Below are positions 2,310-57,826 of a stretch of 64,000 nt of DNA, in pieces. Position 1 is the first letter of the stretch. Each line of letters begins with the position of its first letter. The notes under the pieces are model-generated. The model was not told the origin of the DNA and did no database searches. It saw only the letters and a list, made by a program, of their open reading frames with translations. Source of the DNA: Planctomycetota bacterium (GTDB taxonomy: Bacteria; Planctomycetota; UBA1135; UBA2386); assembly GCA_965228735.1 (NCBI GenBank), contig OZ245838.1, positions 6,016,001 through 6,080,000 of the forward strand, in the 5' to 3' direction. Both the position numbers and the translations under genes were made by a program.

Positions 2310-2353
2310 TGGTGGGTCCTGCGGATGAACGTTTCTGGGCGGCTGGTGGCGGG

Positions 2354-5067: not shown

Positions 5068-5103
5068 GTGCCTTGGTGCTGAGGGGTGGGGGCTCGGGAG
5101 CGG

Positions 5104-6528: not shown

Positions 6529-9407
6529 TGCTTGCTCCGGTGATCGACGACCACGCGGCCGTTGCAGACGACGAGCAGCACGCGGCTCTGCGGCTCGAAG
6601 GGGTTGCCCGAGAACACGACGAAGTCCGCGTCCTTGCCCTTCTCGAGCGAGCCGACGCGATCCGCGATGCGGAACGCCTCGGCCGGCCAGAGTGTCAGCG
6701 CCTTGAGCGCGTCCGCGGGGCTCAGGCCGTAGCGCACGGCGTAGGCCGCGTGCATCGGCAGGTGGCGCGCGCCCTTGCACTCGCCGCTGCCGAACAGCAC
6801 GGGCTGACCGCGGTCGGCGAGAACCGCCGGCTTGTTCTGCAGCTGGCCCTTCTCGTCCTCGGTCACGACGACCGGGCCGACGATGACGGGCGGGTTCTTG
6901 CCGTTGCCGATCGCCTGATCGTCGACGAGGTCGCGCACGCCCTGCAGCACGTAGGAGATCTCCTCCTTCTCGAGCAGGTCGATCACGTCGCGCGTCGCCG
7001 CGCCGCGGTTCGTCACGACGACGAGAGCCGCGCGCTTCTCGAGCACGGCGCGGATCGGTTCGAGGTTGTGGTCGACCTTGGGCGCCTCGGGCTTGTCCGA
7101 CTTCGCTTCCTCGGCCTCCTTCGCGATGGCCTCGACCTTGCTCGGCTTGCCCTGGCTCGTGCGCTTGGCGGCGAAGTCCTGCTCGCCGAGACGGCCGAGC
7201 GAGATCTTGCCGCTCATCGACTCGCCGTTGATCGTGGCTTCGATCTTGGCGTCGCCGCCGCGGCCCATGCCGGCGAACTCGAGCACGAGCTTGCCGCCCT
7301 GGAACGAGCCGGAGTTGATCGGGCGCGGCTGCATGCGGCGGCCGCCGAAGCCGACGCTGATGTTGCCCGTGACCTTCGTGCCCTGACGCTCGAGCTCGAG
7401 GATCAGCTTGAGCTGGATCTGGCCGCGGATGTCGATGTCGGCCTCCCAGGTGCCGGTGACGGCGTCGGCGGTCTCGCCGGCGTCCTTCTCACCTTCGCCG
7501 GTCTTGTCGCCCTGCTTCGCGGCGGCCTGCTCGGCGGCCGGCTTCTCGGCGCTCGCTGTCGCGGTGCCGTCCTGCTTCTGCTGCCACTCGGCGAGCGCCT
7601 TCTCGTAGTCCTGCCACTTCTTGACGTAGGCCTTGCCGCGGTCGAGCTGCGACTTGACCGCGTTGATCGCGCCCGGGCCGATCGCGTCGTGCTGCATGCG
7701 CACGCCGGCGATCTCCCGCACGACGAGGCCGGCGCGGTCCTTGGCGCCGGTCTTGACCGCGGTCACGCGGTGCGGCGTCGCGCCGCGATCCTTGCCGGAC
7801 GCGAGCACGGTCGTCAGACCCTCCGCGAGCGCGCCCTCGAACATCGGGTCGTCGTACTCGATCGCTTCGTCGAGCCTGGCTGCGGCGGTGCCGCTCGGCA
7901 CGCCCTGGCCGTCGCCGGCGAGGCCGAGGTGCGAGAACGCGTCGACGAAGCCGGGCGTCATGACCGCCTCGCCGAGATCGATGACCTCGGCGCCGTAGGG
8001 CACCGCGAGCTCTTCGCCGACGGCCTTGATGCGACCGTCCTGCACGATGATCGTGCCGTCGCGGTAGACGCGGCCCGTCGCATCGAGGATCCGGCCGCAG
8101 CGCACGGCGAGCACCGCGCGCGTCGGCGACGGTTCGCGCTCGAACATCCGTTCGCCGCCGATCCAGGTCGACTCGACCATCGTGCCGACGGCGAGCGGGT
8201 CGCCGCTGAGGATCACGAAGTCGGCGTCCTTGCCGGCCGCGAGCGTGCCGACGCGATCGTCGACGCCGAGGATCGCGGCCGCGTCCGCGCCGATGGCGCG
8301 CAGCGCGTGTTCGCGCGACAGCCCGTGGCGCACCGCGATCGCGACCGCCATGAGGTAGTCGCGCGCCGAAACGCCGGGGGCGGGGCACAGGCCGATCTTC
8401 ATCCCGGCCGCCGCGGCCTTGGCCGGCGCGTCTGGCCGCGCTTCGAGCGTCTCCTGCTGGCGGTCCTCACCGCCCGGGTTGCGCTGGCCGAAGCGCACCG
8501 GCACGCGGAACGTCGCCGCGACCTGCTGGCCGGCGGCGCGCTCGGCGATCGGGCCGATGTGCTGCGGGTCCTCGAGCACCATCGTCAGCCCGAGCTCCTT
8601 CTGCAGCTCGAGCGCGCGGTGGATGTCGTAGGTCTTGACCGCGGCCGCGCGCACGCGCAGCTTGCCGGTCGCGGCATCGCGGATCGCGGACTCGTCGTAG
8701 AGATGCTCGGCCGGGCCCTCACCGCCGAGGCCGACGTCCTCGGCCTTGCTCGCCGCGGCTTCCGCGAACAGCGCGCGCAGCTCCGGCAGCACGGCGATGC
8801 GCGCCGTTGGCGTCTGGATGCGCGAGGGCTGCAGCGGCTCGTCGCTCGTCGGGAACGGGTTCGGCTCGAACACGCGGGGCGCGCGCACCGAGCTGTCGCC
8901 GAAGTCGACGCGCAGGCAGTTGGCGTCGTCGAGCACGCGCTCGACGATGTCGTCACCGGCCGTCTTCACGACCGCGCCCTGACCCGAGATCAGGCGCTGC
9001 CGCCCGGGTGACAGGTAGAGCGTCGTGACGCCGCCGGCGAGCTCGGCGCGGCGCCTGCGCTCGAAGTCGAACGCGTCGAGCGCGAGCGCGTCGGGCGTGA
9101 CCTGGTACTCGGAGTCGGCGGCGCCGCTGAGGTCGCTGTCGACCGCGACGATGCCGGGCATCACGACCTTGTCGCGCGCGTCCGTGACGGGCACGTTCGC
9201 GGGCGGCGCGGTCTTGCCGATGCTCTTGATCTTGCCGTTCTCGACGACGAGCCAGACGTCCTGCATGGCCGTCTTGCCGTCGCCGGTCAGCAACGTGCCG
9301 CAGCGGATCGCGCGCGCGCCGGTCTCGCCCTGCGCCGGCAGGAAGCCGGCGAGGGTGAGCAGCGCGGCCGTCGCCGCCGCCTGGAAGCGGAAGGAATGGA
9401 ATCGCAT
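6525..9407 (-). CDS. Exported protein with two tandem amidohydrolase-fold domains (operon gene 5), both degenerate, with an inserted small beta domain
   Basis: 960 aa; two copies of MPG/TPG..., G(T/S)LxxGKDADF; domain 1 AVDSD, domain 2 DAFSH in place of HxH. Confidence 0.9.
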   Translation of the reverse strand: MRFHSFRFQAAATAALLTLAGFLPAQGETGARAIRCGTLLTGDGKTAMQDVWLVVENGKIKSIGKTAPPANVPVTDARDKVVMPGIVAVDSDLSGAADSEYQVTPDALALDAFDFERRRRAELAGGVTTLYLSPGRQRLISGQGAVVKTAGDDIVERVLDDANCLRVDFGDSSVRAPRVFEPNPFPTSDEPLQPSRIQTPTARIAVLPELRALFAEAAASKAEDVGLGGEGPAEHLYDESAIRDAATGKLRVRAAAVKTYDIHRALELQKELGLTMVLEDPQHIGPIAERAAGQQVAATFRVPVRFGQRNPGGEDRQQETLEARPDAPAKAAAAGMKIGLCPAPGVSARDYLMAVAIAVRHGLSREHALRAIGADAAAILGVDDRVGTLAAGKDADFVILSGDPLAVGTMVESTWIGGERMFEREPSPTRAVLAVRCGRILDATGRVYRDGTIIVQDGRIKAVGEELAVPYGAEVIDLGEAVMTPGFVDAFSHLGLAGDGQGVPSGTAAARLDEAIEYDDPMFEGALAEGLTTVLASGKDRGATPHRVTAVKTGAKDRAGLVVREIAGVRMQHDAIGPGAINAVKSQLDRGKAYVKKWQDYEKALAEWQQKQDGTATASAEKPAAEQAAAKQGDKTGEGEKDAGETADAVTGTWEADIDIRGQIQLKLILELERQGTKVTGNISVGFGGRRMQPRPINSGSFQGGKLVLEFAGMGRGGDAKIEATINGESMSGKISLGRLGEQDFAAKRTSQGKPSKVEAIAKEAEEAKSDKPEAPKVDHNLEPIRAVLEKRAALVVVTNRGAATRDVIDLLEKEEISYVLQGVRDLVDDQAIGNGKNPPVIVGPVVVTEDEKGQLQNKPAVLADRGQPVLFGSGECKGARHLPMHAAYAVRYGLSPADALKALTLWPAEAFRIADRVGSLEKGKDADFVVFSGNPFEPQSRVLLVVCNGRVVVDHRSKQ

Positions 9408-9411
9408 CGGA

Positions 9412-10725
9412 CTACTTGTTGTCCTCGCCGCTCTTGTTGTCGCCGTCCGGGCCGCCGCCCTTCTTCTCCTTGTCCTGCTCGTCGCCGAACAGGTACTGGA
9501 GGCGCGGGTCCTTGTCGCGTTCGTAGACGACGCTGCCGTCGAGCAGCACCGTGTCGACCCACGTCGTGGCCTCGAACGGATCGCCCGTGAGCACCTGCAG
9601 GTTGGCGACCTTGCCGACCTCGATCGTGCCGACCTGGTCCTCCAGACCGAGGATCTTCGCGGGCACGACCGTCAGCGCCTCGAGGGCCTGGCGGCGCGAC
9701 AGACCGTTGCGCACGCACGTGCCGAGCTGCCACCACGGGTAGCTCGTCGGGCCGCTCGAGCCGAGCGTCAGCGCGAACGGCACGCCGGCGTCCGCGAGCA
9801 GCTTCGCGACGCAGATCTTCTTCTGCTCGCGCGTCTCCTCGTCGGTCTCGCGGTACTCGATGTTGTCGTCGAGGATCATCGGCATCTCGAAGCGCGCGAG
9901 CTTGCTCGCGGCCTCGTCCACGTCGCGACCGAGCACGATCTGCAGGTCGAGTTCCTGCGACAGGCGCAGCGCTTCACCGACCTCGGCGTAGGACGGCACG
10001 TAGAGCCAGCCCTTGGCCTTTTTTTCGACGAGCTTCGCGGCGGCCTTCTTCGTCCGGTCGTACTCCTCGTCCCACTCCTTGTCCGCGGGCTCGGCGCCGG
10101 CCTTCTTGGCGTCCTCGAACTCCTGCTTGCGGCGTTCGAAGTCGGCGATGTACTCGCGCACGTCGGCCAGCGCGCGGCGCAGCTCCCGGATCTGCTGCAG
10201 GCGCCGGCCGCGCTGGTTCATCAGCGACACCTTGATGCCGGTGTTGGCCGCGACCGTCATGTCCTCGATCGTCTTGCCGAACGGCTTCAGGACCATGCCC
10301 GAGCCGCCGAGCAACGTGCTGTTGCCGGGCTGCACGTGGACCGTGCCGACGCCGTTGCGCAGCGCGTCCTCGAAGTAGGTCGACGCCGGGTCGACCGCGT
10401 CGGCGACCGATAGCCACGGCACGTTCTGCATGCTCTCGTTGCTGCCGCGCATGCCGCCCGTGCCGTGCGCGATGACCCACGTCGGCATGACGACCTTGTC
10501 CGAGGCGTCGACGACCGTCGCCGTCCACGGGATCTCGACCTCGGTCGCCTTGCTGATCTGCTTGATGCGGCCGTTCTCGATCAGGATGACGCTGTTCTCG
10601 AGCGCCGGCCCGCTGACCGTGAGGATCTTGCCGGCCTTGACGGCGACCATGTCCTGCGCCGCGGCGGGTGCGGCGCACAGGGAGACCACCGCGCTGATCG
10701 CGGTGAGGGTGAGGAGCTTGTTCAT
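9412..10725 (-). CDS. Exported amidohydrolase-fold protein (operon gene 4), metal ligands degenerate
   Basis: Signal peptide ending AAAQD; VVMPTWVIAHGT (one His); GTIEVGKVANL. Confidence 0.88.
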   Translation of the reverse strand: MNKLLTLTAISAVVSLCAAPAAAQDMVAVKAGKILTVSGPALENSVILIENGRIKQISKATEVEIPWTATVVDASDKVVMPTWVIAHGTGGMRGSNESMQNVPWLSVADAVDPASTYFEDALRNGVGTVHVQPGNSTLLGGSGMVLKPFGKTIEDMTVAANTGIKVSLMNQRGRRLQQIRELRRALADVREYIADFERRKQEFEDAKKAGAEPADKEWDEEYDRTKKAAAKLVEKKAKGWLYVPSYAEVGEALRLSQELDLQIVLGRDVDEAASKLARFEMPMILDDNIEYRETDEETREQKKICVAKLLADAGVPFALTLGSSGPTSYPWWQLGTCVRNGLSRRQALEALTVVPAKILGLEDQVGTIEVGKVANLQVLTGDPFEATTWVDTVLLDGSVVYERDKDPRLQYLFGDEQDKEKKGGGPDGDNKSGEDNK

Positions 10726-11948
10726 CGGGAGGTGTGGACCGGTTGACCGTCGACGTGGACCGAGACGGGGGTGGCCGTGGGGTGAAGGGGATCGTGGGAC
10801 CAGACGACGAAGTCGGCGTCCTTGCCCGTGGCGAGGCTGCCGACGCGATCGTCGATGCCGAGGAGGCGGGCGGGGAGGATCGTCACCGCGTCGAGCGCGA
10901 GCTCGGGCGCGATGCCGTTGCGCGCGGCGAACATCGCCTCACGCACGAGGTCGAGCGCTTCGGGGTTGGTACCCGTCGTGATGACGAACGGGATCTTGCG
11001 GTCGGCGAGCTTGGACACGGTCGCGCCGCGCGGGTCGGCACCGTCGCGCCCGGCCGTGCCGGCGACACGCTCCGCGCTCGGGGCGCCGAGCAGCACAGTG
11101 ACCTCGGCCTTCTGCAGCTCGTCGAGGACGTAGTAGGCGTCCTGCGCGTCGTCGATGACGGTCTTGTAGCCGAACTCTTCGGCGAGACGCAGCGCGGTGC
11201 GGATGTCCTGCTCGCTGCGCGCGGTCGTGAACGCCGTGAGGTTGCCGGCGAGGACGCGTTTCAGCACCTCCATGCCGGGGCTCGGCGTCGGGTCGCCGCC
11301 GTCGAGCGTGTTCTCCTCCTTGGCCTGGAAGAACGCCTGCCGCGCGGCCCACACGACGCCCATGCGGGTCGTCGGCCGGCGGTAGTAGATCGAGTCGATG
11401 CGGCCGCCGCGGATCGCGCGGTTGCCGAGCGACGGTTCGCTGCCCATGACGAGACGCATGCTGGCCTCGCGATCGAGGATCATCTTGCTCGGGCTGCTGC
11501 CGAACGTCTTGATCGCGCAGCCGAGACCGGAGATCACGTTGCGCGTCCCGGGCATCACGTGCACGGTCGTCACGCCGGCCTCGCGGGCCCGGACGAACGC
11601 CGGATCCTCGGGGTCGATCGCGTCGAGCGCGCGCATGTGCGGCGTGACCTCCTCGCTCTGCTCGTTGAGGTCGGTGTAGTCGACGCTGATCTGAAACGAC
11701 GCGTCGACGAGGCCCGGCGTGATCACCTGACCCGCGCAATCGACCGTGACGGCGCCGTCGGGGATCGGCGTCGAAGCACCGCCGACGGCCTGGATCTTGC
11801 CGCCGGCGACGATGAGCACGCCGTCAGCGATCGGCGCGCCGCCGCCCGGCATGATCGTCGCACCCTTGTAGACCGTCACACGGTCCTGCGCGGCGAGCGG
11901 ACTCGCGACGACAGCGGCGAGGAGAACGGACAGAACGGGCGAACGCAT
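10722..11948 (-). CDS. Exported amidohydrolase-fold protein (operon gene 3), metal ligands degenerate
   Basis: Start MRSPVLSVLLAAVVASPLAAQD at 11948 (TGATG overlap); TPGLVDASFQ (no HxH); GSLATGKDADF. Confidence 0.88.
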   Translation of the reverse strand: MRSPVLSVLLAAVVASPLAAQDRVTVYKGATIMPGGGAPIADGVLIVAGGKIQAVGGASTPIPDGAVTVDCAGQVITPGLVDASFQISVDYTDLNEQSEEVTPHMRALDAIDPEDPAFVRAREAGVTTVHVMPGTRNVISGLGCAIKTFGSSPSKMILDREASMRLVMGSEPSLGNRAIRGGRIDSIYYRRPTTRMGVVWAARQAFFQAKEENTLDGGDPTPSPGMEVLKRVLAGNLTAFTTARSEQDIRTALRLAEEFGYKTVIDDAQDAYYVLDELQKAEVTVLLGAPSAERVAGTAGRDGADPRGATVSKLADRKIPFVITTGTNPEALDLVREAMFAARNGIAPELALDAVTILPARLLGIDDRVGSLATGKDADFVVWSHDPLHPTATPVSVHVDGQPVHTSR

Positions 11949-13129
11949 CAGCGGGTTTCCTCGGAGGTCTTGGTCTGGTTGGCGCGCTTCGACTCGGAGC
12001 CGCGCAGCAGCGTGCCGTCCACCCAGCACGCGACGTGCGCGCTGTGCAGGTCGAGCGGGTGACCGCTCCACACGTTGAAGTCGGCGGCGCAACCGCGGCG
12101 CAGCGCGCCGACCGTCGCGGTCTGACCGAGCAGGTCGGCCGGCGTGCGGGTCAGCGCCTGCAGCGCGACGGCGCGATCGAGGCCGTGCCGCACGGCGAGT
12201 ACCGCGGACAGCCGCAGCTTGCTCGGGTCGCCCGCGAACGCGAACGGCACGCCGGCCGCGGCGAGCTCGGCGGGCAGGCGGAGCTGCTCGAGACGCATCT
12301 CGGGGCGCAGCGTCGACAGCACGATCGCGGCCTTCTGCGCCGCGATCCGGTCCATCACCTTCTTCGCCTCGGCGCCGCCGACGATGACGGGGCTGAAGCC
12401 GAACTCCTCGGCGAGGTCGAGCAGGCCCGACAGCTCGGTGTAGGTGTCGGCGTGCGCGAACACGCGGCGCGAGCCGTCGAGCACCTCGCGAACGATCGCG
12501 ACGGCGGGGCCGCCCTGCGTGCCCTTCTGCGCGTCGCCGAACACCGTGCGGAGCATCTCGAGCGCGCCGATCAGCGATGTCGGCGCGCGCTGCTGATCGC
12601 GCGCGACCTTGGCGATCGACAGCTGCAGGTGCAGCTCGCGTTCGGCGATGCGGCCCTGGGCGTCGTCGCCGCTCTTGCCCGGCTTGGCGAGCGCCGCGAG
12701 GCCGCCCGCGACGTTGCGCGGCGACGGCGACAGCGCGACCGACGTGATGCCGGCGTCCGGCAGCTCGTCGAGCTCGTCGTTCCACGGATCGAACGCTTCG
12801 GCGGCGAGCAGGTCGGGCGTGAAAGCGAACGCGGCCTCGGCGAGGTCGCCGTCCTGGCTCAGCGTCGACTGCGCGAGCACGAAGCCCGGCGTGATCGTCG
12901 CGTCGCCGTAGTCGAGGCGGCGGGCCGTGCGGCGCGCTTCCGCGGGGATCTCGTCGCCGAGGTAGAGGACCTTGCCGTCGCGCACGAGCAGCTGGCCCGG
13001 CGAGAGGACGGTGCCCGGCGCGACGACGATGCGCTGCGCCTGGATCAACAGGTCCTGCGCGTTCGCCGCGGCGGTCAGAACGCCGAGGGCGAGACAGAAG
13101 GAGGGAAGGGAGCGATGCATGACGAGCAC
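11948..13129 (-). CDS. Exported amidohydrolase-fold protein (operon gene 2), metal ligands degenerate
   Basis: Signal peptide ending ANAQD; TPGFVLAQST (no HxH); GALRRGCAADF. True start may be ATG 13120. Confidence 0.85.
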   Translation of the reverse strand: MLVMHRSLPSFCLALGVLTAAANAQDLLIQAQRIVVAPGTVLSPGQLLVRDGKVLYLGDEIPAEARRTARRLDYGDATITPGFVLAQSTLSQDGDLAEAAFAFTPDLLAAEAFDPWNDELDELPDAGITSVALSPSPRNVAGGLAALAKPGKSGDDAQGRIAERELHLQLSIAKVARDQQRAPTSLIGALEMLRTVFGDAQKGTQGGPAVAIVREVLDGSRRVFAHADTYTELSGLLDLAEEFGFSPVIVGGAEAKKVMDRIAAQKAAIVLSTLRPEMRLEQLRLPAELAAAGVPFAFAGDPSKLRLSAVLAVRHGLDRAVALQALTRTPADLLGQTATVGALRRGCAADFNVWSGHPLDLHSAHVACWVDGTLLRGSESKRANQTKTSEETR

Positions 13130-13131
13130 GA

Positions 13132-14883
13132 TCAGTTGGCCTCGTATTCGGTGCGGCCCTTGCCGAGCACGAGCAGCACGCGGCTGTCGCTCTCGAACAA
13201 CGGTCGGTCGAAGATCACCACGTCGGCGAACTTGCCGCGGGTCAGCGACCCGGTGTCGCGGTTGATGCCGAGGATCTCGGCGGGGGTGAGCGTGATGGCG
13301 CGCAGCGCGGCGGCCGGGGCGAGGCCGCGGCCGACGGCCGTCGCGGCCATGAGCGGCAGCAGCGACGCGTGCCGCGCCTTGCCGGTCGCGATCGCGAACG
13401 GCACACCGGCCTTGTCGAGGTGCTGCGGTGCCGCGGCCGGATCGAACGCCTCGTAGAGCTTCGGCATGCTGCTCGGCAGCACGTCCGTCAGCACGACCGT
13501 CGCGCCGGCTTCGCTGATGGTCTCGGCGAGCTGGGCGACGCCGTAGGCCTGCTCGAGCACGAGCAGCGGCACTTCGGCCGCGCGCTGCAGCGCGAGCGCG
13601 GCGCGCAGTTCGTCCGGGCGGTGGGCTTCGACGCGCAGCGGCATCTCGCCTTCGAGGACCGCGAGCAGGGCTTCCTTCGTCGGGTCTTCCTTGACCGGCT
13701 TGGGGTAGGTCGGGCGCTTCGGCGCCTCGTCCTTCTTCGCGGCCGGCTTCTGGTCGTCGCCCTTCTTGTCGCCGGCTCCCTGCGCGGGCTTCTCGCCCTC
13801 ACCCTGCGGCGGCTTGCCCTGCGGGTCCTGCGCCGTCGCGGCGGGCTCGGCTGCGAGCAGCTCGAGCATCTCGAAGAACGCGGCCTCGAACTCGGGCGAC
13901 GCCAGCAGCTCTTCGCCGTTCATCGCGTTGCCGCCACCGGGTGGGCCGCCGCGCCGGCGCCGGCCATCGGCGCCGCCGGCGTTGCCCGGCCGGTTGCCGC
14001 CGCCGCGGCGTGCGTTACCGGACTCGCTGCCGCCGTCCTTGCCGTCCTCGGCCTTCTTCTTGGCCTTGTTCTTCTCGTGCCACTCGAGCCACTTCTTGAA
14101 GTCCTCGGCGTACTTGTCGAGGTCCTTGTTGTACTTCTGCTTGGCCTCTTCGTACTTGTCGAGACCGTCGAACGTCTTGAGCAGCGCGTCGAGTTGCTGC
14201 TGCCGCGCGAGCGCATGGGTCGGCACCGGACCGCGCGTCATGCGCAGCTGCACCGCGGCCTTGCTCTTGTCCTCCCACACCTCGAAGCCGTCCTTCCGCG
14301 GCCGCACGATCGCGCCCTGCCCTGCCGGCGCGCTCACGTAGGCGACCGTGATCCCCGCCGCCGCGAGCGCGTCGTCACGCGTGTGCCGCAGCTGCAGGTC
14401 GTCGGCGAGCGCCATGCCCGCGTCGAGCTGTCCGGTCTGCGTCGCGGGATCGGTGAACGCGTCGGTCTCGGCGTCGATCAGGCCCGGGTAGACGTGCCCC
14501 GCGGGGAACGCCCGCACGGTCGCGCTCTCCGGGATCTCGACCTCGCCCTGCTTGCCGACCGCGAGGATGCGCTCGCCGCGAATCAGCACGACGCCGTTCT
14601 CGATCGCCGGACCGCTGACCGGGTGCACGTGGCCAGCGGTGATCGCGATGACGGGCTGGCGGCGGCTGCCCCGACCTTGGCGACCGGGACCCTGGCGACC
14701 AGCTCGGTTCCCGCGGCGGTTGCCGCCCTGGCGACCCGGGTCCTGGGCCCCGGCCCGCTCGGTGCCGGCCCGTTCGGATTTCGGCGCGGGTTCGGGTTCC
14801 TGCGGTCGCACCACTGATCTGGCCGGCAGACCCAGGGTCGAAAGGAGGAACAGGACAGGGAAGTGCCAGGGAATCCTGCGCAT
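13132..14883 (-). CDS. Exported amidohydrolase-fold protein (operon gene 1), metal ligands degenerate, long low-complexity insert
   Basis: Start MRRIPWHFPVLFLLSTLGL at 14883; YPGLIDAETD (no HxH); GSLTRGKFADV. Confidence 0.85.
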   Translation of the reverse strand: MRRIPWHFPVLFLLSTLGLPARSVVRPQEPEPAPKSERAGTERAGAQDPGRQGGNRRGNRAGRQGPGRQGRGSRRQPVIAITAGHVHPVSGPAIENGVVLIRGERILAVGKQGEVEIPESATVRAFPAGHVYPGLIDAETDAFTDPATQTGQLDAGMALADDLQLRHTRDDALAAAGITVAYVSAPAGQGAIVRPRKDGFEVWEDKSKAAVQLRMTRGPVPTHALARQQQLDALLKTFDGLDKYEEAKQKYNKDLDKYAEDFKKWLEWHEKNKAKKKAEDGKDGGSESGNARRGGGNRPGNAGGADGRRRRGGPPGGGNAMNGEELLASPEFEAAFFEMLELLAAEPAATAQDPQGKPPQGEGEKPAQGAGDKKGDDQKPAAKKDEAPKRPTYPKPVKEDPTKEALLAVLEGEMPLRVEAHRPDELRAALALQRAAEVPLLVLEQAYGVAQLAETISEAGATVVLTDVLPSSMPKLYEAFDPAAAPQHLDKAGVPFAIATGKARHASLLPLMAATAVGRGLAPAAALRAITLTPAEILGINRDTGSLTRGKFADVVIFDRPLFESDSRVLLVLGKGRTEYEAN

Positions 14884-15220
14884 GTGGCCGGGCGATCGGG
14901 GTCTAGCGGGGGGCCGCTGGTGCGGCGCGGGGGGCCCCGCATTTACGGCGACGGGACGATGGTCTGCCAACCCTTTTTGCAGGCCCCGGTGCAACTTGGG
15001 TGTCGCGGGGCCGCCGGGCGGCAATTGTGCGGTGCGACGGAAGGTCGGACCGTCACAGTCAACCGTTGCCCATCGGCGGCACCCTGAGGCACGACAACCA
15101 CTTCGAAGTCATCGTCATCGGGCCCAGGATGGGCGGTAAACCGCTGATAAGGGTAAGATCGCCGGCGTTCTGGTGACGACCGGAGCCGGACCCGCGGACG
15201 CAGCGGGAAGAGAGTCGCCC

Positions 15221-17647
15221 ATGCGTAACACCGTCTCGATGTCCACCTGCCTCTTTGCGCTTCTGGCCTCGGCCCAGGCGCAATCGACGCTGCAGTGGCA
15301 GCCAGGATCCGCCATTCCAGGACCGATCGATGGCTACGGTCTCGCCCTCGTCGGCTGGGACCCTGACGGGTCGGGACCGCTCCCCGAGCGCATGGTGGTG
15401 GGTGGATCGTTCTTCGATGCCAGTGGTCAGGATCTGGGGACCGTCCTCGCCTTCGATCCGGCGGGGGTCAGCTGGACGTCGGTGTCGTTGGACAACTCGA
15501 CCGTTCGACAACTTGTGGTCCTGCCGAGCGGCGATCTCGTCGCTGCAGGCACGCTGTTCCTGCCCGGCACTACCACCAACATCGGTATTGCGTTCTGGGA
15601 CGGGCAAGGGTGGCAGGCTCTCGGTGGCGGCCGCAGCCGAACCGTCAGCGTCGTCACGCTCATGGCGAATGGTGACCTCGTTGCTGGTGGCGAAGCGCTC
15701 GAAGTCTGGGACGGTTCGGCGTGGAGCGTGATCCCGACGCCGATCGCCAACGCCAGCTCGTACTTGCCGCTCGCGCTGTCGAACGGCGATCTGGCCGTCG
15801 CCTTCGCCACCCCGACCGGTGCGTTCCTCGGCGTGCGGTCGGCCGCCGGTTGGCAAACCTGGGGCGCGTTCTCGACGCCGCCGATCGGCAGCTTCGTGTA
15901 CTCCATGGCCGCGTTGCCGAACGGCGACTTCGTCGTGGGCGGGGTCTTCGAAGCCGTTGGCGGCGTCGCCTCGCCCGATCTGATTCGGTTCCATCAGGGC
16001 GCTTGGGTGCCGTTGCCGCGGCCGGGTACGCACCGCGTGCCTGTACGCTTGTTCGCCCGCCCGGACGGCAGCGTGCTGATGGCGAACTACGCGGCAAGCG
16101 TGCTGCGGTGGGACGGCACCGATTGGATCTCGTTCGGCTCGCCGCTGTCGCAGATCGGCGCGTTCGGAGAGACCTCGACCGGTGAGCTGTTCGTCGCGGG
16201 TGGGTATTCGCACGATTTGGACGGCGTCGTGCGGCGCTACGACAGCGGCGCGTGGCGGCCGCTCGGGCACGGGTTCACGAGCCCGATCCTCGATCTCGAG
16301 GTCGACGCGCGCGGCGACCTGTTCGTTGCCGGAGAATTCGATCAGGCGGGTGACACGGCGGCGTTCGCGGTCGCGCGTCGTGACGCCGCCGGCTGGCACG
16401 CGCTGGGTGCAGGGCCGCGGAGTCCCGCGCAGACCGTTCTGCCGCTGACGAACGGGAACGTGGTGACGGGTACTTCGCACGGTGACGTCGAACTCTGGGA
16501 TGGCGCCCAATGGCGGACCATCGGGGATCTCGGCTACTACGCCGTCAAAGCCCTGATCGAACTCCCCAACGGCGACGTCGTCGCCGGCGGCAGGTTCAGC
16601 GCCACGGCGCGCCGCGTCGCGCGCTGGGACGGCTCCGCGTGGCACGCGCTCGGCACGGGGCTCGGTCCACCATTCAACGGTGGCGAGTACGATTCGGTCG
16701 AATGCCTGCTCGCGATGCCGAACGGTGATGTGATCGCGGGCGGCTACTTCAAGGACCCCAACAACAACAACCAACTCTGGAATATCGCGCGCTGGGACGG
16801 CAACAGTTGGGCGGCAGTCGGGCCGGGCATCGGCTCCGGGAACAGGGTCGTCGACCTCGCGTTGGCGCCGGATGGGAGCCTGCTCGCCGCGGTGAGGGGG
16901 GGATACAACCCGGGCATCCGGCGGTGGGACGGCACCGCCTGGTCGGCATTCGCAGTCGTCAACGACAACATCTTCGCGATCGACGTCCTGCCCAACGGCG
17001 ATCTCCTCGCAGGTGGCTCGTTCACCCAGATTGCCGGAGTCGCGGTTGCGGGGCTCGCGCGGTGGGACGGTAGCGTGTGGGCCGCGGTCGACCCGAGCGT
17101 CGGCCCAGTCGTCGAGGCGCTGGCGCACACGCCCGACGGCACGGTCCACGCCGCGACCCATATCGGCGCCTTCTGCTGCCGGCTCGAGATCCAAGGCGTC
17201 ATCACCCGGCACTACGCCACTCTGACGACGCAACTCCAGGCGCGCGCGGATCGGATACCGACGCCGTGCGTCGGCCCCGCCGGCCCTCTCGAGTTGACCG
17301 CGGCCGCGCTGCCGTGGATCGGCACGACGTTCCGTTCGACGGCGGCGGGCTTCGCGCCGGGAGCCCTGGCGCTCGCGATCGCCGGCACGGCGCCGCGCAA
17401 TCTGCCGCTGTCGCTGGTCTTGCCGAGTGCGCTACCCGGTTGCCACCAACTCGCATCGAGCGAAGTCGCCGCGTTCGCGATCCCGAGCGCCGGTGCCGCG
17501 TCGTTCGAGTTCGCCATTCCGAATACGATCGTCCTCGCACAGCTGCAGGCCTGGCACCAGTTCCTCCAACTCGAACTGACCCCTCAGGGCGTCCCCCTGA
17601 CTCTCAGCAGCAGCAACGGCCTGCACCTCGTCATTGGTGCGTTCTAG
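15221..17647 (+). CDS. Secreted beta-propeller repeat protein (WDG-x-x-W / PNGDL repeats) with conserved C-terminal domain
   Basis: Signal peptide ending AQAQ; about 13 repeats of ARWDGxxW...LPNGDLxAGGxF; paralog of 55367-57826. Confidence 0.85.
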   Translation: MRNTVSMSTCLFALLASAQAQSTLQWQPGSAIPGPIDGYGLALVGWDPDGSGPLPERMVVGGSFFDASGQDLGTVLAFDPAGVSWTSVSLDNSTVRQLVVLPSGDLVAAGTLFLPGTTTNIGIAFWDGQGWQALGGGRSRTVSVVTLMANGDLVAGGEALEVWDGSAWSVIPTPIANASSYLPLALSNGDLAVAFATPTGAFLGVRSAAGWQTWGAFSTPPIGSFVYSMAALPNGDFVVGGVFEAVGGVASPDLIRFHQGAWVPLPRPGTHRVPVRLFARPDGSVLMANYAASVLRWDGTDWISFGSPLSQIGAFGETSTGELFVAGGYSHDLDGVVRRYDSGAWRPLGHGFTSPILDLEVDARGDLFVAGEFDQAGDTAAFAVARRDAAGWHALGAGPRSPAQTVLPLTNGNVVTGTSHGDVELWDGAQWRTIGDLGYYAVKALIELPNGDVVAGGRFSATARRVARWDGSAWHALGTGLGPPFNGGEYDSVECLLAMPNGDVIAGGYFKDPNNNNQLWNIARWDGNSWAAVGPGIGSGNRVVDLALAPDGSLLAAVRGGYNPGIRRWDGTAWSAFAVVNDNIFAIDVLPNGDLLAGGSFTQIAGVAVAGLARWDGSVWAAVDPSVGPVVEALAHTPDGTVHAATHIGAFCCRLEIQGVITRHYATLTTQLQARADRIPTPCVGPAGPLELTAAALPWIGTTFRSTAAGFAPGALALAIAGTAPRNLPLSLVLPSALPGCHQLASSEVAAFAIPSAGAASFEFAIPNTIVLAQLQAWHQFLQLELTPQGVPLTLSSSNGLHLVIGAF

Positions 17648-17867: not shown

Positions 17868-20204
17868 ATGACGATGGCAGCGTTCTTCGACGACCCCGAC
17901 GATCTGGTCCGCGCGCACGAGAGCGTGCGGCGGCTCGCGGTCGCGATCGCCGGGCGGGCCGGCGACGGGGACGACCTCGCCCAGGAGGCCTGGCTCAAAG
18001 CCCTGCGAAACCGGGCTCCCGGCCCGCTGCGCGACCCCAAATCATGGTGGGGAAGTGTCTTACGAAACGCGAGGCGCGACCGACGGCGGGGTGACGCCCG
18101 CCGCGCGAAGCGCGAGCGGCTGGCGGCGGTGCCGGCCGGGACCGAAGCCGCGACCCCGTTCGACCTCGCGGTCTACGAAGAGCGCCGGCGGGGGCTCATC
18201 GCGGCGATCGAGGCCTTGAGCAGCCCGCAACGCGACGTGATCGTGGCGCGCTACTGGGAGGGGCTCGAGCCGCGCGAGATCGCGGCGCGGACCGGCGAGA
18301 GTGCGGCGGCCGTGCGGCAGCGCCTGCGGCGCGCGCTCGCGGCGCTGCGGGCCAGGGTCGAGCGGCGAGGGGACGCCGGCGCGTGGCTCGCGCCGCTCTG
18401 CGTCGGCGGGTTCGGTGGTCGCGAGTCGGCGGCCCTGGCCGGAACGACGTCATCGTCAGGCGCGACCGCGGTAGGGACCGCGGCGACCGCAGCGGCAGCG
18501 ACCGCTGGAGGAGTCCTGATGAACAAGGTTCTCGTGACGGCGGCCGCGGTCGTGATCGTCGTACTGGGATTCGGCGCGTTCGAGTTCCTCGGGTCGGAGC
18601 CCATCGATCCCGGAGCGCACGGTGCAGCGACCATCGCTGCCGCGGAACTCGATCCGGAGGCCGGGACGGAGCCTCGGCGCGACGTCGCCATCGCATCGGT
18701 CGATGTCGAACGGCAGCCGCGGGTCGTGTCCGAGGTGCCGGCAGTGACGCTCGTGGATCACCGCGGTGAGGGACTCGTCGGCGTGCCGTACTGGCTCGAC
18801 GAACGGCCGCACGACTCGCACCCGGGTACGGCACCCGCCGGCGCGCCGCGAACTCGCGCGGACGGTGCCGTGGACCCGGCGCCGCTCGTGCAGGAACTCG
18901 GCGCCGACGAAGGGTGGCGCGACTGGCTGTGGTTCGAGATCGACGGGCATCTAGCGATGGCCGTGTCGCTCGCGCGTCTCGCGGAGTTCCATCGCGACGA
19001 GACGAAGCTGCCACGGCCGTTCGAGATCGAGGTGCCGAAGCGTCGTCGAGTGCGAGTCTCTGTCGATCGCGTGCCACCGGGTACCCCGTGGCAGGTCAGC
19101 GTGATGATGTGGCGGCAAGGGCAACCACCCGCCAGCCGGCTCGCCACCGAGCTCTCGCGTTCCCAGGACGGCGTATGGCTGCTGCGCAAGGCACTCCGCC
19201 ACGACCACACGATGAGGGAGCCCGCCGTGTTCACGGTACTCGACTCGTGCACGTACTTCTTTCGTTGCGAATCGAGCGTCGTGTCGTTTCGGGATCCGGT
19301 CGTGGAGTCGCGTTCGGGCTCCCGGATCATCTTCTATGCCAAAAGGCCGCGCCCCGCGTTCCTGCTCGAGGTGCTCGAGCCGGGCGGCTGGCACCGCAGC
19401 ACGATCGGCGGCCATTGGCAGTTCGAGGTCGACAACGGCGCGCGCGGCGGCGACTTCGTGAACGGCGTCGCGGCGCCGACGAGCGCCGACTGGCGCCAGG
19501 AACGCTGGGACCGCATGGTCGTCGTCCTGCGCGACGGCGAGCTGTTCTCGATGAAGTGTTCCGAGCTGCCGATGTTCGATCGCGCGGTCACGGTCGTGCG
19601 CGCGTCGGGCCGGCCGGCCATTCGCGCCATCGAGGTCGCGACGTCGGTGATGGAGTGGCCGGGCGCGCGCACCTACTGGCAGGATGGTCTGCGGCTGCGG
19701 TCGACGTGCACGCCCGCGGCACTGCACACGCAGCAGACGAACGATCAGGTCGCGGTGTGGCTGCACGAGAACAACCTCATCGTGCAGACCAATCGACCGG
19801 ACGTGCTCGTCGGACCGTTGCTGCGCATCGCGGAGAACGGCTACGTCGCGCGCGAGACCGGCGGTCGCCTCGAGGTGCTCGACGGCGCCGAACTCGAACC
19901 GCTCGACCTGATGCGCATCGTTCGCCAGTACGCGCGGTCCCAACGTGACCGCGAACTCGTCGTGCGCCACGAACTCACGCTGTCCGGCGTCGTCGCGAGC
20001 AACGACAGCCCGTGGCTGCCCGTTCGCTCGTGGCGCCTGCAGCGAGTCACCGGCTTCGGCTGGCGCATCGTCGAGTCATCGGACGGCGACGTCCACCAAC
20101 GCATCCCGGACGCGATCCCGCTGTGGGCGCCGTTCGCGGCGGGGTCACGGTTGCTGGTGAAGTCTCCGAGCGCAGGCGAGGTCGCGTTGCCGCACTATCG
20201 GTAG
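17868..20204 (+). CDS. ECF-type sigma-70 factor fused to a transmembrane helix and large C-terminal extension
   Basis: Region 2 DDLAQEAWLKAL, region 4 LSSPQRDVIVARYWEGLEPREIA...AVRQRLRRA; hydrophobic helix VLVTAAAVVIVVLGFGAF; start 17868 or 17874. Confidence 0.85.
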   Translation: MTMAAFFDDPDDLVRAHESVRRLAVAIAGRAGDGDDLAQEAWLKALRNRAPGPLRDPKSWWGSVLRNARRDRRRGDARRAKRERLAAVPAGTEAATPFDLAVYEERRRGLIAAIEALSSPQRDVIVARYWEGLEPREIAARTGESAAAVRQRLRRALAALRARVERRGDAGAWLAPLCVGGFGGRESAALAGTTSSSGATAVGTAATAAAATAGGVLMNKVLVTAAAVVIVVLGFGAFEFLGSEPIDPGAHGAATIAAAELDPEAGTEPRRDVAIASVDVERQPRVVSEVPAVTLVDHRGEGLVGVPYWLDERPHDSHPGTAPAGAPRTRADGAVDPAPLVQELGADEGWRDWLWFEIDGHLAMAVSLARLAEFHRDETKLPRPFEIEVPKRRRVRVSVDRVPPGTPWQVSVMMWRQGQPPASRLATELSRSQDGVWLLRKALRHDHTMREPAVFTVLDSCTYFFRCESSVVSFRDPVVESRSGSRIIFYAKRPRPAFLLEVLEPGGWHRSTIGGHWQFEVDNGARGGDFVNGVAAPTSADWRQERWDRMVVVLRDGELFSMKCSELPMFDRAVTVVRASGRPAIRAIEVATSVMEWPGARTYWQDGLRLRSTCTPAALHTQQTNDQVAVWLHENNLIVQTNRPDVLVGPLLRIAENGYVARETGGRLEVLDGAELEPLDLMRIVRQYARSQRDRELVVRHELTLSGVVASNDSPWLPVRSWRLQRVTGFGWRIVESSDGDVHQRIPDAIPLWAPFAAGSRLLVKSPSAGEVALPHYR

Positions 20205-32172: not shown

Positions 32173-33951
32173 TCAGCGCCGCACGATGAGCTGCACGCCG
32201 TTCGTCGGCGTCAGCGTGCCCGACGTCGCGCCGAAGACGAACGCCTGCAGATACAGGCGGGTGCCGTGCCACGCCACTGCTGGCGGGATCGTCACTGTCT
32301 CCGACGCCGTGCTGCCGTTCCAGAAGCCGATCGAGAGCGGCGATGACGGCGTTCCGAGCAGGTAGCGCCCGCTGAACGGTGCTGGCATCGGCACGTTGTC
32401 GGGGTCGAGGCTGCCGACGAACGCGTAGAGATCGCCGTTCTGCACGGGGAACCGCGGGTCCAGATCGATGAAGCAGGTCGTGCCGGTCCGCGGCTCGTTG
32501 CGCACCGTGAGGCCGTTCTCGAGTCCGGCGGCCGCGAGCATCGCCGCGGTGTCCGGGCGCCGCGCGATGCCGCTGACCTGCGGGCCGTGGGCCCGCAGCA
32601 GCGCGCGGATCGCGAACATGTCCATCGCGGCCGCGGCCGCCGGCTCGAGCTGGGAGCGCGCCGCGCCGAGCATCGCGGTCACCGCGCCGGTGACGATGGG
32701 GGTCGCGGACGACGTGCCGCTGAAGCTGTCCGTGTAGCGCTGCCGCACATCGCCCGGATCGAACAAGCTGCCGTAGCCCGTCGTCGCGACGGAACCGCCC
32801 CAGCCGTTGGCGTCGATGCGGCTGCCGTAGCAGCTGAAGCCGGCGCGCGACAGCGGACCGCCGAGGCTCGCGCCGACGATGATCGCGCCCGAGTCGCGCA
32901 CGTTGAGGTTGAACAGTCCGCCGAGCGACGGCGAGTCGAGGTTGACGCCGCCGTTGCCGGCCGCTTCGACGGTCACGATGCCGAGCCCCGTCGCGATCAG
33001 GATCGCGTCGAAGTCGGCCTGGTTCCACTCGGTCGGCCCGAGGCCGAGCGGCGTGCCGGTCTGCGCCTCGAGCACCATCACGTCGCCTGCCGTGAGCACG
33101 GGCAGGCCGACGGCGATCGCGTTCGCGACGCTGTAGCCCGACGCCGGGAAGTCGGTCGCGACCCGGATGTCGACGTCGGGGTTGAAGCCCGTGACGCCGT
33201 AGATGTCGTAGTCGGCCGCGATCTCGCCCATGACGGCGGTGCCGTGGTTGTTGAAGCTCGGGTTGGCGATCGGTGGGCCGACGAGCGCGCTGGCCACGAG
33301 CTCGCGGATGTCCTCGTGATCGAAGTTCCAGCCCCATTCGATGTCGAGCACGGTGATGCCCGCGCCGGTCGCGCCCAGCGAGGATGCGATCGCATGGCCG
33401 TCGATGCCGTTCGGGGAGCTGTCGCGGTAGCCCTGTTGGATCGTGAAGTCCGGGGTCGGCGGGAAGATGTCACCAGGTGGGGGCGTGGGCAGCTCGCGCG
33501 GGTATGCCAGTTCGACCGCCGCCAGTTCGTTGAGCCGCGCCGTGAGCTCGCGGGTCGCCGCGCCGCCCGTCGTGTGGACCTGGAAGTAGAGCCCGAGGTC
33601 GACCGGCGGGCGCTGCCCGGGCGGCGTGCGCGCGAGCTGGCGGGCGCGGATCGCGCGCAGCTCGGCTGCGAGGCCCGGGAAGAACGAGCCGACCTGGCGG
33701 CCGCCGATCACGGCGAGGACGTCGGGCGCGACGATCCTGCCGTCCGCGACGAGCTCGGGGCGGCCTTCCGCGAGCTTCAGCACGACGCGGTCCTGCCCGA
33801 TCGTCGCGGGCAGAGCGTTGGCCATCGCCTTCGGCATGACTCCGCGGACCGGCAGCCCGGTCGCGATGGCGGCGGACTCGGGCGGGGGTGGTAGCTGCGG
33901 CGCGAGCAGGGCGCTGCCGAGGGTCAGACTGAGAACGGCAGAGAGCGTCAT
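32173..33951 (-). CDS. Secreted subtilisin-like (S8) serine peptidase with C-terminal domain
   Basis: Triad VLDIE / HGTAV / FSGTSSATP, oxyanion AAGNG; signal peptide and prodomain. Confidence 0.92.
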   Translation of the reverse strand: MTLSAVLSLTLGSALLAPQLPPPPESAAIATGLPVRGVMPKAMANALPATIGQDRVVLKLAEGRPELVADGRIVAPDVLAVIGGRQVGSFFPGLAAELRAIRARQLARTPPGQRPPVDLGLYFQVHTTGGAATRELTARLNELAAVELAYPRELPTPPPGDIFPPTPDFTIQQGYRDSSPNGIDGHAIASSLGATGAGITVLDIEWGWNFDHEDIRELVASALVGPPIANPSFNNHGTAVMGEIAADYDIYGVTGFNPDVDIRVATDFPASGYSVANAIAVGLPVLTAGDVMVLEAQTGTPLGLGPTEWNQADFDAILIATGLGIVTVEAAGNGGVNLDSPSLGGLFNLNVRDSGAIIVGASLGGPLSRAGFSCYGSRIDANGWGGSVATTGYGSLFDPGDVRQRYTDSFSGTSSATPIVTGAVTAMLGAARSQLEPAAAAAMDMFAIRALLRAHGPQVSGIARRPDTAAMLAAAGLENGLTVRNEPRTGTTCFIDLDPRFPVQNGDLYAFVGSLDPDNVPMPAPFSGRYLLGTPSSPLSIGFWNGSTASETVTIPPAVAWHGTRLYLQAFVFGATSGTLTPTNGVQLIVRR

Positions 33952-55366: not shown

Positions 55367-57826
55367 CTAAAAAGCCCCGACCGTGAGCTCGAGCGCGTTC
55401 GAGCTGCTGAGCGACATCAGCAGACCGCCGCCGTCGAGCTCGACCTGGATGTACTGATGCGACAGCGGCAGTCCGGCGAACGCGGGGTCGTTGGGGATCG
55501 AGAACGCGTACTCGACCGCGCCGGCGATCGGCAGGCCGAGGAACGTCGCCTCGGTGTTCGCGAGCAGGTCGCAGTTGGGCAGGGCCGCCGGGTCGAACGC
55601 CTGGAGCGGCACGTTCTGCGAGCCGATGCCGACGAGCCCGAACGCGAGGGCGCCGGGCAGGAACCCGTTCGCCGTGGACTCGAACGTCGAGCCGGTCCAC
55701 GGCAGCGTGCTGCTGGTCAGCGTGATCGGACCCGCGGGGCCGACGCACGCCGTGGTCACGTTGGTGAGCGTCGCCGGGCAGGTCGTCGTGACGATCGCGA
55801 GGTTGCCCGCGGCGCCGCTGCCGGCCAGCGTCAGCGAACCGCCGACCGCGAGATCACCGTTCGGCAGCTGCGCGAGCGCCGTGAGGTCGCTGTCGGTGTC
55901 CGTGCCGAGGAGCGGCGCCCACGCGGTCCCGTCGAACCGCGCGAGGTTCGCGACCGCGACACCGCCGGCCGTGGCGAAGCTGCCCGCCACGACGAGGTCG
56001 CCGTTCTGCAGCTCGACGACCGCGCGCGCCGGGCCGTCGACGCCGCCGCCGAGATCGTCCCACGTCGCGCCGTTCCAGCGCGCCACTCCGTTCGCGGGCA
56101 CCCCGTCGACGCCGGTGAACTCGCCGACGATCACGAGGTCGCCGTTCCCGCGTTCGAGCACGTCGAGCACGATGCCGCCCGTCGGGCTCGCGAACGGCGT
56201 CCACGCGCTGCCGTCCCAGGTCGACAACTGCGGGCCGAGGATCGGATCGCGGTGCGCGGCGAGCAGATCGCCGCTGCCGAGCTCGATCACCGCGCGCGGA
56301 TCCTGCGGCAGGCCGCCGCCGAGCGTCGACCACGTCGCGCCGTTCCAGCGCGCGACCCGCGACGCGAGGATGCCGCCGATCGTCGTGAAGTTGCCGACCG
56401 CGACGAGGTCGCCGGCCGCGGTCACGACGAGGTCGCGCACGGTGTTGTTGGCGTCGCCCATCGACTGCCACGCGTTGCCGTCCCAGCGCGCGATGCGATC
56501 GATCGACTGCCCGCCCGCGGACCGGAAGTCGCCGCCCGCGATGATCTCGCCCGCGCGCTCGACGACGGTGCGCGGGATGTTGACCTCGAAGCCGCCGCCG
56601 AATGCGTGCCACTGCGTGCCGTCCCAGCGCGCGATGCGGTTGGCCGGCGTCGTGCCGGCCGCGAGGAACGAGCCGACCGCGATCAGGTCGCCGTCGCCGT
56701 TGACGAAGAGATCCTCGACCGGCAGGTTGAGCCCGTGCCCGGCGCCGAGCGGTTGCCACGCGCTGCCGTCCCACTCTGCCGCACCGCGCGCGCCGACGCC
56801 GCCAACCGTGAGGATGTTGCCGCACATCACGAACCCGGTCGGCGTCGGCAGGAGATCGCGCACGTTCCACGGGTCGCCGAAGGCCTGCCACGTCGTGCCG
56901 CTGCGGCGGGCGAGGCCGCGGATGTTGGTGCCGCCGACGTTGGTGAAGTCACCGCCGATCAGCAGATCGCCGTTCGGCAGGTCGAGGAACGCGTAGACGG
57001 CCTGGTCGGCGCCGCCGAGGTTCTCCCAGATCGAGCCGTTCCAGCGCGCGAAGCGTTGGATCGGCGCGCCGCCGATGAACGTGAAGAAGCCACCGGCGAG
57101 GAGGTTGCCCGCGGCATCGACGTGCAGCGCTTCGACGATCGCCGAGGCGCCACCGCCGAACTGCTGCCACGACACGCCGTCCCAGACCGCGAGGTAGTTG
57201 GTCGCGACCGCGCCGGCGTTGAGGAAGTTGCCGCCGGCGACGAGGTCGCCGTTCGGCAGTTCGGCGAGCGTGTACGCCGGGCGGTCGAAGCCCGTGCCGA
57301 TCGCGGAGAACGTCGCCCCATCCCAGCGGGCCACGCGGTCGACGGGAACGCCCGCGATCGACGTGAAGAACCCGGCGAACGCGAGGTCGCCGCTGCTCAG
57401 CACTTCGATCGCGCGCACGACGCTGTTGCTGTCGTGGTCGGTCCACGTCGTGCCGTCGAAGCTCGCGAGCCGCACGGCTGGTTGGCCATCGATCGTGGTG
57501 AACGCACCGCCGACCCAGAGGTCGCCGTTGCCGTCGACCGCGACGGCCTCGACGTTGCCGTCGAGCGCGGCGATCGCGTGCCACTCGGTGCCGTCGAAGC
57601 GCGCGAGCTTGCTCGCGGCGACGTTGCCCGCGGCGACGAACTCACCGCCGACGACGAGTTGTTCCGCGAGCGGTCCCGCGCCATCGGGGTCCCACATCGT
57701 CGCGCAGTAGCCCCAGCGGCTGAGACCGGCGAAGCCGAGCCCGGGAACGAACTCGTTGTCGCACTGCGAACGCAACGGGCCACTGCTCGCGAGCCCCGCG
57801 AGCAGGATGAGCGTGGTGGCTCTCAT
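55367..57826 (-). CDS. Secreted beta-propeller repeat protein with conserved C-terminal domain (paralog of 15221-17647)
   Basis: Signal peptide MRATTLILLAGL; about 14 ARW(D/N)GxxW...NGDLxxxGxF repeats; start reassigned to ATG 57826. Confidence 0.88.
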   Translation of the reverse strand: MRATTLILLAGLASSGPLRSQCDNEFVPGLGFAGLSRWGYCATMWDPDGAGPLAEQLVVGGEFVAAGNVAASKLARFDGTEWHAIAALDGNVEAVAVDGNGDLWVGGAFTTIDGQPAVRLASFDGTTWTDHDSNSVVRAIEVLSSGDLAFAGFFTSIAGVPVDRVARWDGATFSAIGTGFDRPAYTLAELPNGDLVAGGNFLNAGAVATNYLAVWDGVSWQQFGGGASAIVEALHVDAAGNLLAGGFFTFIGGAPIQRFARWNGSIWENLGGADQAVYAFLDLPNGDLLIGGDFTNVGGTNIRGLARRSGTTWQAFGDPWNVRDLLPTPTGFVMCGNILTVGGVGARGAAEWDGSAWQPLGAGHGLNLPVEDLFVNGDGDLIAVGSFLAAGTTPANRIARWDGTQWHAFGGGFEVNIPRTVVERAGEIIAGGDFRSAGGQSIDRIARWDGNAWQSMGDANNTVRDLVVTAAGDLVAVGNFTTIGGILASRVARWNGATWSTLGGGLPQDPRAVIELGSGDLLAAHRDPILGPQLSTWDGSAWTPFASPTGGIVLDVLERGNGDLVIVGEFTGVDGVPANGVARWNGATWDDLGGGVDGPARAVVELQNGDLVVAGSFATAGGVAVANLARFDGTAWAPLLGTDTDSDLTALAQLPNGDLAVGGSLTLAGSGAAGNLAIVTTTCPATLTNVTTACVGPAGPITLTSSTLPWTGSTFESTANGFLPGALAFGLVGIGSQNVPLQAFDPAALPNCDLLANTEATFLGLPIAGAVEYAFSIPNDPAFAGLPLSHQYIQVELDGGGLLMSLSSSNALELTVGAF

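Follow-up and report, generated by a model that had tools for sequence, protein, structure and literature searches.

An Ig-like domain of exported proteins in Planctomycetota as a candidate tether to the cell surface

A 64,000-nucleotide stretch of a planctomycetal genome (hereafter the window) encodes two beta-propeller proteins and an unrelated S8 peptidase that end in similar segments, raising the question of whether such a segment directs exported proteins of different types to one destination or holds them there. The original prediction had read it as a lineage-specific Ig-like domain serving as a C-terminal sorting or anchoring signal. We examined the domain in the window, throughout the source genome and across the phylum.

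The shared domain and its predicted fold

Matches to the domain were recovered at all three predicted places in the window (Table 1). The two propeller tails share 48% identity over 135 aa as opposed to 30% for their passengers, consistent with their having been singled out as better conserved than the repeats of these proteins. The S8 tail gives a non-significant pairwise match to propeller tail A (E 0.007); it is detected, as the proposed relationship would have it, by profiles built without this tail and without its paralogue (Table 1), and when the S8 catalytic region was used as the query, 65 of 120 database homologues had the domain at most 18 aa from their end. The tail common to the three window proteins is real, the weak S8 copy included.

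Table 1. Features in the window and elsewhere, with their coordinates
Feature	Position	Strand	Remarks
Run of ~ten exported amidohydrolase-like genes	window 936-15024	-	Lys-rich, without the domain; five genes with adjoining orthologues in the distant genome G180 (L184)
Rax2/DUF5122-type beta-propeller protein, 808 aa	15221..17647	+	signal-peptide-like start; 2 Lys
Domain copy 1 (unnamed, Ig-like, terminal)	17243..17638	+	model pLDDT 94.9
ECF-type sigma factor fused to ~600-aa C-terminal extension	window 17868-20204		hydrophobic stretch in the extension
S8 (subtilase) peptidase, 592 aa	32173..33951	-	signal-peptide-like start; 2 Lys
Domain copy 2, divergent and shorter	32182..32517	-	without the Cys pair; held-out profiles E 8.4e-6, 3.9e-5
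1167-aa protein with pilin-like N-terminus (N_methyl E 0.074), then second pilin-like gene	window 37867-42410		second gene without Lys beyond its first 35 residues
Rax2/DUF5122-type beta-propeller protein no. 2, 819 aa	55367..57826	-	signal-peptide-like start; 1 Lys
Domain copy 3	55376..55774	-	48% identity with copy 1
Carriers with the second half of the domain only	G000:C1:5780-7918 and 3180940		three genes; common 35-aa tail
Conserved type II/IV-like cluster	G000:C1:1397583-1412826; L249:7825-19981		~1730-aa pseudopilin-like protein; unannotated 495-aa exported protein
Large Lys-poor Big_5 lipoprotein-like proteins	G000:C1:2569111-2575679 (L140), 731484-734378, 2655148-2660637		two tandem pairs; first family marks the clade
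Second unnamed C-terminal module, ~150 aa	L300:860-1309 (G129)		family f10, same order

An AlphaFold model of the window copy (Table 1) is an all-beta sandwich and its top fold matches are generic Ig-like folds (6grq_A, with the best Z of 8.9, rmsd 2.9 and 92 aligned), in agreement with the Ig-like fold that had been foreseen. The macroglobulin (MG) domains of complement C3 and alpha-2-macroglobulin (C3: Z 8.6, rmsd 2.7, 101 aligned) and the Ig domains of LILR, which are among the best of these, share 8-12% identity with the model, score barely above the generic Ig background, and are not taken as a guide to function. Foldseek with the domain model returned nothing at E<=0.001, a PDB sequence search returned complement C3 alone (E 0.02), and 63 copies scanned against Pfam and NCBIfam gave chance matches of single members only (best E 0.023), as had been expected of a domain that falls in no known carbohydrate-binding or catalytic family. 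We found no description of it in the openly accessible main texts that were searched, and the accessible parts of 10.1101/817700, 10.64898/2026.10.26.761892, PMC11131199 and PMC11032199 contain no mention of such a domain.

In databases, 26,134 protein clusters (50% identity) match the domain at E<=0.001; the ESM Atlas clusters are unnamed, with Planctomycetota as the commonest taxon. The copies are very divergent, with a median identity of 27% among the 31% of pairs detected by BLAST. Conservation over 313 aligned copies is highest at a Gln (97%), at two Pro (94%), at a Gly (89%) and at a Ser/Thr (96%), which precedes a more variable Asn (55%); the end motif originally described is thus borne out in part, well for the Gln and the Ser/Thr and less so for the Asn. 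A pair of Cys residues, which we infer to form a disulfide, covaries across the family (both present in 163 copies, neither in 33, a single one in 11, uncovered in 106). The domain is predicted to be an Ig-like module of ~130 residues, present once per protein.

Copies and carriers in the source genome

The source genome (G000) comprises 7.19 Mb with 69% G+C and is 93% complete. For one housekeeping protein encoded in the window, the nearest relatives come from draft genomes of Planctomycetota, one of which, labelled CL500-15, has it at 79% identity. Five profile iterations over its 61,526 six-frame ORFs recovered 288 ORFs with the domain at E<1e-3, a threshold at which reversed-sequence decoys gave none. 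A search restricted to protein ends yielded ~320 copies, with 0-1 decoy matches at E<0.01, and further proteins resemble members by eye. Carriers make up ~6% of the 5184 genes called with our own codon model, in line with the many copies that had been anticipated. The carrier genes are clustered, forming 60 adjacent pairs among 317 genes as against ~19 expected.

The copy ends within 5 residues of the stop in 222 of the 288 ORFs, at 6-15 residues in 38 and at 16-50 residues in 17. No ORF of the 288 has two copies, nor does any of the best 150 database representatives, 148 of which end at most 5 residues from the terminus. The expectation of an invariably C-terminal position failed: 11 of the 288 copies lie near the N-terminus, at least seven proteins consist of a signal peptide and the domain alone, and in nine proteins the domain is inserted in a jelly-roll and is followed by a tail of 34-45 residues. 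This tail directly adjoins the N-terminal passenger in three relatives from the same genome (one by profile, two by eye), and the inserted architecture is a conserved family with 150 database matches. A model of one such protein (pLDDT 96.2) matches a jelly-roll over residues 7-342 (7tog_A, Z 9.3, rmsd 3.1, 149 aligned), while over residues 182-310 its matches are Ig folds; as modelled, the domain is therefore kept where no free C-terminus exists. The N-terminal, inserted and stand-alone copies argue against a cleaved signal of the T9SS or sortase type, and they weaken the reading as a C-terminal sorting signal while leaving that as an anchoring module intact. In three carriers the domain is reduced to its second half (Table 1); a profile of its first strands gave no support to the circular permutation suggested by eye for those at G000 5780, 6752 and 3180940.

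By a crude rule, a signal peptide is present in 225/287 carriers versus 1504/4346 other genes, a background of 35%. With alternative starts allowed the counts rise to 259 and 2052, and many of the 28 carriers still without a signal peptide resemble fragments or mis-called starts. The predicted association with signal peptides thus holds as an enrichment, and not for every carrier. Membrane helices beyond the start are found in 6/287 carriers versus 744/4346 other genes; Tat motifs occur in none of the 287 and lipoboxes in four. Directly after the signal peptide predicted by the same crude rule, Gln is found in 222/225 carriers versus 746/1504 others (e.g., the proteins starting at window positions 15221 and 57826), a pattern similar to the Q-rule of Bacteroidota, in which Gln follows the signal peptide.

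The carriers are also poor in Lys (0.5%; the figure is 2.5% for the remaining proteins with a signal peptide and 2.8% for those that lack it), and the domain tails are of very low charge (Lys 0.2%, Glu 1.7%). Among references from the same genome, Lys makes up 0.0% of what we take, by its motifs, to be flagellin and 0.6% of the presumptive hook protein, as against 1.3-7.8% of six periplasmic proteins named via the Pfam matches of their G180 orthologues. That carriers are as Lys-poor as flagellin suggests, on compositional grounds, a location outside the outer membrane. A comparison of extracellular with periplasmic proteins found cheap residues to be favoured outside, Lys not being singled out in the accessible part of that study (PMC2932507). 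Lys depletion is not a rule specific to the domain: S8 homologues with PEP-type tails share the depletion, and in some domain-bearing homologues Lys reaches 2.5-5%. The cargo among 64 carriers from dense clusters includes propellers (Kelch, Rax2, sortilin, FG-GAP), trypsin, M14 and M43 peptidases, beta-lactamase-like proteins, sulfatase, LamG and di-haem peroxidases.

Distribution and alternative tails

The domain is matched in 39 of 40 relatives from the same order, the exception being G027, which has no match even at E 10. Of 301 genomes sampled evenly across the phylum, 67 have the domain, six of these with a single match; it is confined to part of the phylum, as its presumed lineage-specificity had implied. 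In two of five single-copy genomes inspected it lies within the chain, and a different C-terminal region comes after it. In G236 and G206 (L162, L163), the copy is embedded in a di-haem peroxidase-like protein, with another C-terminal region of ~320 aa behind it, an arrangement that looks as if a local tag had been added after transfer.

The exceptional genome, G027, has 39 matches to type I dockerins (PF00404), of which 29 of 30 checked end at most 40 residues from the stop. Its 32 dockerin-like ORFs include 12 with a match in G000, and on 7 of those 12 the domain is found. In a syntenic FG-GAP gene beside a di-haem gene, 49% identical over 475 residues between the two genomes, the tail is a dockerin in G027 and the Ig-like domain in G000. 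The median G+C of G027 is 49% at dockerin loci, 51% at housekeeping loci and 49% at lipoprotein loci, which argues against a mixed bin; the same-order swap is known from this single draft assembly, with 91% completeness and 4% contamination. Across the 60 genomes searched, expansions of the domain and of dockerins never occur together: the 33 genomes with at least four domain matches have 0-4 dockerins each (none in 22 of them), and other dockerin-rich genomes (84, 81, 34 and 12 PF00404 matches) have 0-1 domain matches. The genomes with 0-1 domain matches are without a dockerin expansion in 22 of 27 cases.

The domain resembles the dockerin and the C-terminal domain (CTD) of T9SS cargo in position and cargo, yet it belongs to neither family. 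Dockerins of type I are helical calcium-binding repeats of ~60-70 aa. Like them, it is a terminal module, carried once by each of a wide range of exported proteins, and it takes the identical position in the syntenic gene described above; unlike them, it is an all-beta sandwich of ~130 aa with a Cys pair. There is no sequence match between the two, the duplicated calcium-binding loop-helix that typifies PF00404 is lacking in the domain, the 63 copies searched have no Pfam match and G000 has no PF00404 match. Type A CTDs of Bacteroidota (PF18962/TIGR04183) are likewise Ig-like terminal domains carried by hundreds of Sec-exported proteins. The domain differs in its length (130 aa against the 75 positions of the Pfam model), in its lack of a match to either profile, in its 11 N-terminal and nine inserted copies, and in the lack of a PorV match above the cut-off and the patchy C25 peptidase of its genomes (see below). 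The top 50 fold matches are to generic Ig folds; no solved T9SS CTD is among those 50, which is compatible with the domain nevertheless sharing the CTD fold. PEP-CTERM/exosortase and IPTL-CTERM tails occupy its position in S8 homologues of other genomes; these comprise a short motif, a membrane helix and a basic tail, whereas the domain is soluble and folded, has no NCBIfam match, and shares its chain with a membrane helix in just 6/287 carriers.

Among S8 homologues outside the clade, an IPTL-CTERM tail was found above the cut-off in one (P0085) and below it in another. Tails assigned by eye in homologues without the domain were PEP-type in 11, Cys-Gly-membrane in four and dockerin-like in two; the only PEP-type tail rescanned at a loose threshold fell below the cut-off. 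Known anchors at the domain's position in these homologues and in the G027 gene are what the predicted anchoring role would lead one to expect. A second unnamed C-terminal module, seen in a family of the same order (Table 1), is ~60% identical across unrelated passengers that include Rax2/DUF5122 propellers, and has 1179 database matches and one copy in G000. Its homology to the window domain is unsupported by hhalign (E 0.078 and 0.13; 0/120 at E<0.1).

Cohesin (PF00963) gave no match in G000, G027, G116 or G051, its control ringing in 2/14 genomes. In the last three genomes (e.g., L315-L344), which have 34-84 dockerin matches, the dockerins, too, may therefore bind something other than a protein scaffold. 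The accessible part of an earlier study proposes a non-cellulosomal cohesin/dockerin "planctosome" for freshwater Phycisphaerales-type planctomycetes of the Nemodlikiaceae (PMC6461901).

Export machinery and the role of the domain

Given that dockerins stand in its place in G027, the likely role of the domain is to hold enzymes at the cell surface, and dockerins themselves likely fill such a role in other Planctomycetota. In its full form, as a non-covalent, dockerin-equivalent tether of several hundred exported proteins to the outer cell surface, this proposal has in our judgement about an even chance of being correct. A carrier would cross the inner membrane by Sec and fold in the periplasm, where its Cys pair would become a disulfide. 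The folded carrier would then cross the outer membrane, most likely by a type II secretion-like machine, a route favoured because no T9SS parts were found; finally, the domain would bind one common envelope receptor, and the carrier would thereby be held on the surface.

Seven secretins are encoded by G000, which has relatives of GspD, GspF and GspG in common with the distant G180. The conserved type II/IV-like cluster (Table 1) stands out for its giant pseudopilin-like protein. Among 33 domain-bearing genomes, its 495-aa gene is present in all and the giant pilin-like gene in 32; the cluster is also found in G027 and in 9-14/26 genomes with 0-1 domain copies, or 43-47 of the 60 Planctomycetota genomes searched, and we rejected it as a domain-specific machine on account of this wider distribution. 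The leading protein candidate for the receptor is a family of Lys-poor Big_5 lipoproteins ending in YWRQ, an envelope polymer being the alternative. They are found in 29/33 domain-bearing genomes, in G027 and in 0/26 others, counts drawn from kin and hence not independent; as they were missed in 4/33 domain-bearing genomes and are kept in G027, they too are not specific to the domain and stand as a candidate only.

We also sought partners by comparing 119 stretches (2.34 Mb) of the domain-bearing G180 with G000 (BLAST, E 1e-6). Among the 1032 best-hit pairs, Pfam scans of the 132 signal-peptide candidates and of 119 out of the 145 membrane candidates revealed nothing T9SS-like; fast-evolving barrels could have escaped the BLAST threshold. 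The prediction that the domain would co-occur with an outer-membrane machinery of its own was not upheld, none specific to it being found among the clusters and families profiled. In G000, SprA (PF14349) and the T9SS CTD (PF18962) have no matches, the controls for both being silent, whereas the control for the PorV family (NF033709) rang, and no match lay above the cut-off in any of 10 genomes. G000 encodes a C25 peptidase, but we rejected it as a dedicated sortase on account of the family's patchy distribution (23/35 domain-bearing versus 16/26 other genomes). We likewise rejected the exosortase as a route: the enzyme is present in G000, and PEP-type proteins number only two by pattern.

These data bear unequally on other roles that might be assigned to the domain. 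A possible, if doubtful, one is that of a folded export tag, recognised in the periplasm by the type II-like machine anywhere in the chain, with retention secondary or absent. It would accommodate the secretins and Gsp relatives as well as the near-universal cluster of the domain-bearing genomes, and equally the dockerin-rich G027 and G116, which have no detectable cohesin yet encode the giant pilin-like gene. However, the cluster is unspecific, a machine inherited vertically would have had to exchange an all-beta tag for a helical dockerin in G027, and in the case of the stand-alone copies there is no cargo that a tag could export. Those same stand-alone proteins are what one would expect as filler if the domain self-associated into an S-layer-like lattice, with fused copies displaying cargo, and the low charge of the tails and the lack of a cohesin-like receptor would also fit; but lattice contacts are hard to reconcile with such divergent copies and the S-layer has 0 occurrences in the accessible text of the Saltatorellota preprint, and we consider this unlikely.

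More improbable still is a general substrate or surface binder resembling a carbohydrate-binding module (CBM), or a periplasmic retainer, with no part in surface display. Ig-like folds do include CBMs (BhCBM56: Z 7.3, rmsd 2.9, 85 aligned) and di-haem peroxidases, which mature in the periplasm, are part of the cargo; against this, the 63 copies are without a Pfam match, tandem repeats are never seen, the cargo is too varied for a single substrate and the composition is flagellin-like rather than periplasmic-like. Highly improbable, too, is the T9SS-like reading, in which export would remove a C-terminal signal and a covalent bond to a surface glycolipid would then secure the cargo. The 260/288 copies at most 15 aa from the stop, the beta-sandwich fold and the C25 peptidase of G000 would suit it, but not the N-terminal and inserted copies, since cleavage there would leave the fold around an inserted copy in two pieces. 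The PorV result and the distribution of C25 also count against it, as do the SprA and PF18962 searches to the extent that their silent controls allow.

Returning to the non-covalent tether, we put forward, with considerable reservation, a wider model of a hitherto undescribed surface-display pathway in a large clade of Planctomycetota. Type II-like export of folded cargo by the giant-pseudopilin machine would be combined with a scaffold of Lys-poor Big_5 lipoproteins, on which a plug-in handle would retain 5-7% of the proteome. Within a single order, at least two other modules, unrelated to this handle or very distant from it, would be able to take its place, namely the second unnamed tail and the cohesin-less dockerins. 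Whatever its role, a family of 26,134 clusters that has no Pfam or NCBIfam model marks ~6% of the genes of G000, and its profile can be used to predict the surface proteome (proteases, sulfatases, peroxidases, propellers) of a large and mostly uncultured part of the Planctomycetota. The replacement by dockerins without a detectable cohesin offers a way to test what non-cellulosomal dockerins bind, through a comparison of the receptors of closely related genomes. If true, the pathway with a replaceable handle would also account for the orphan dockerins elsewhere in the phylum.
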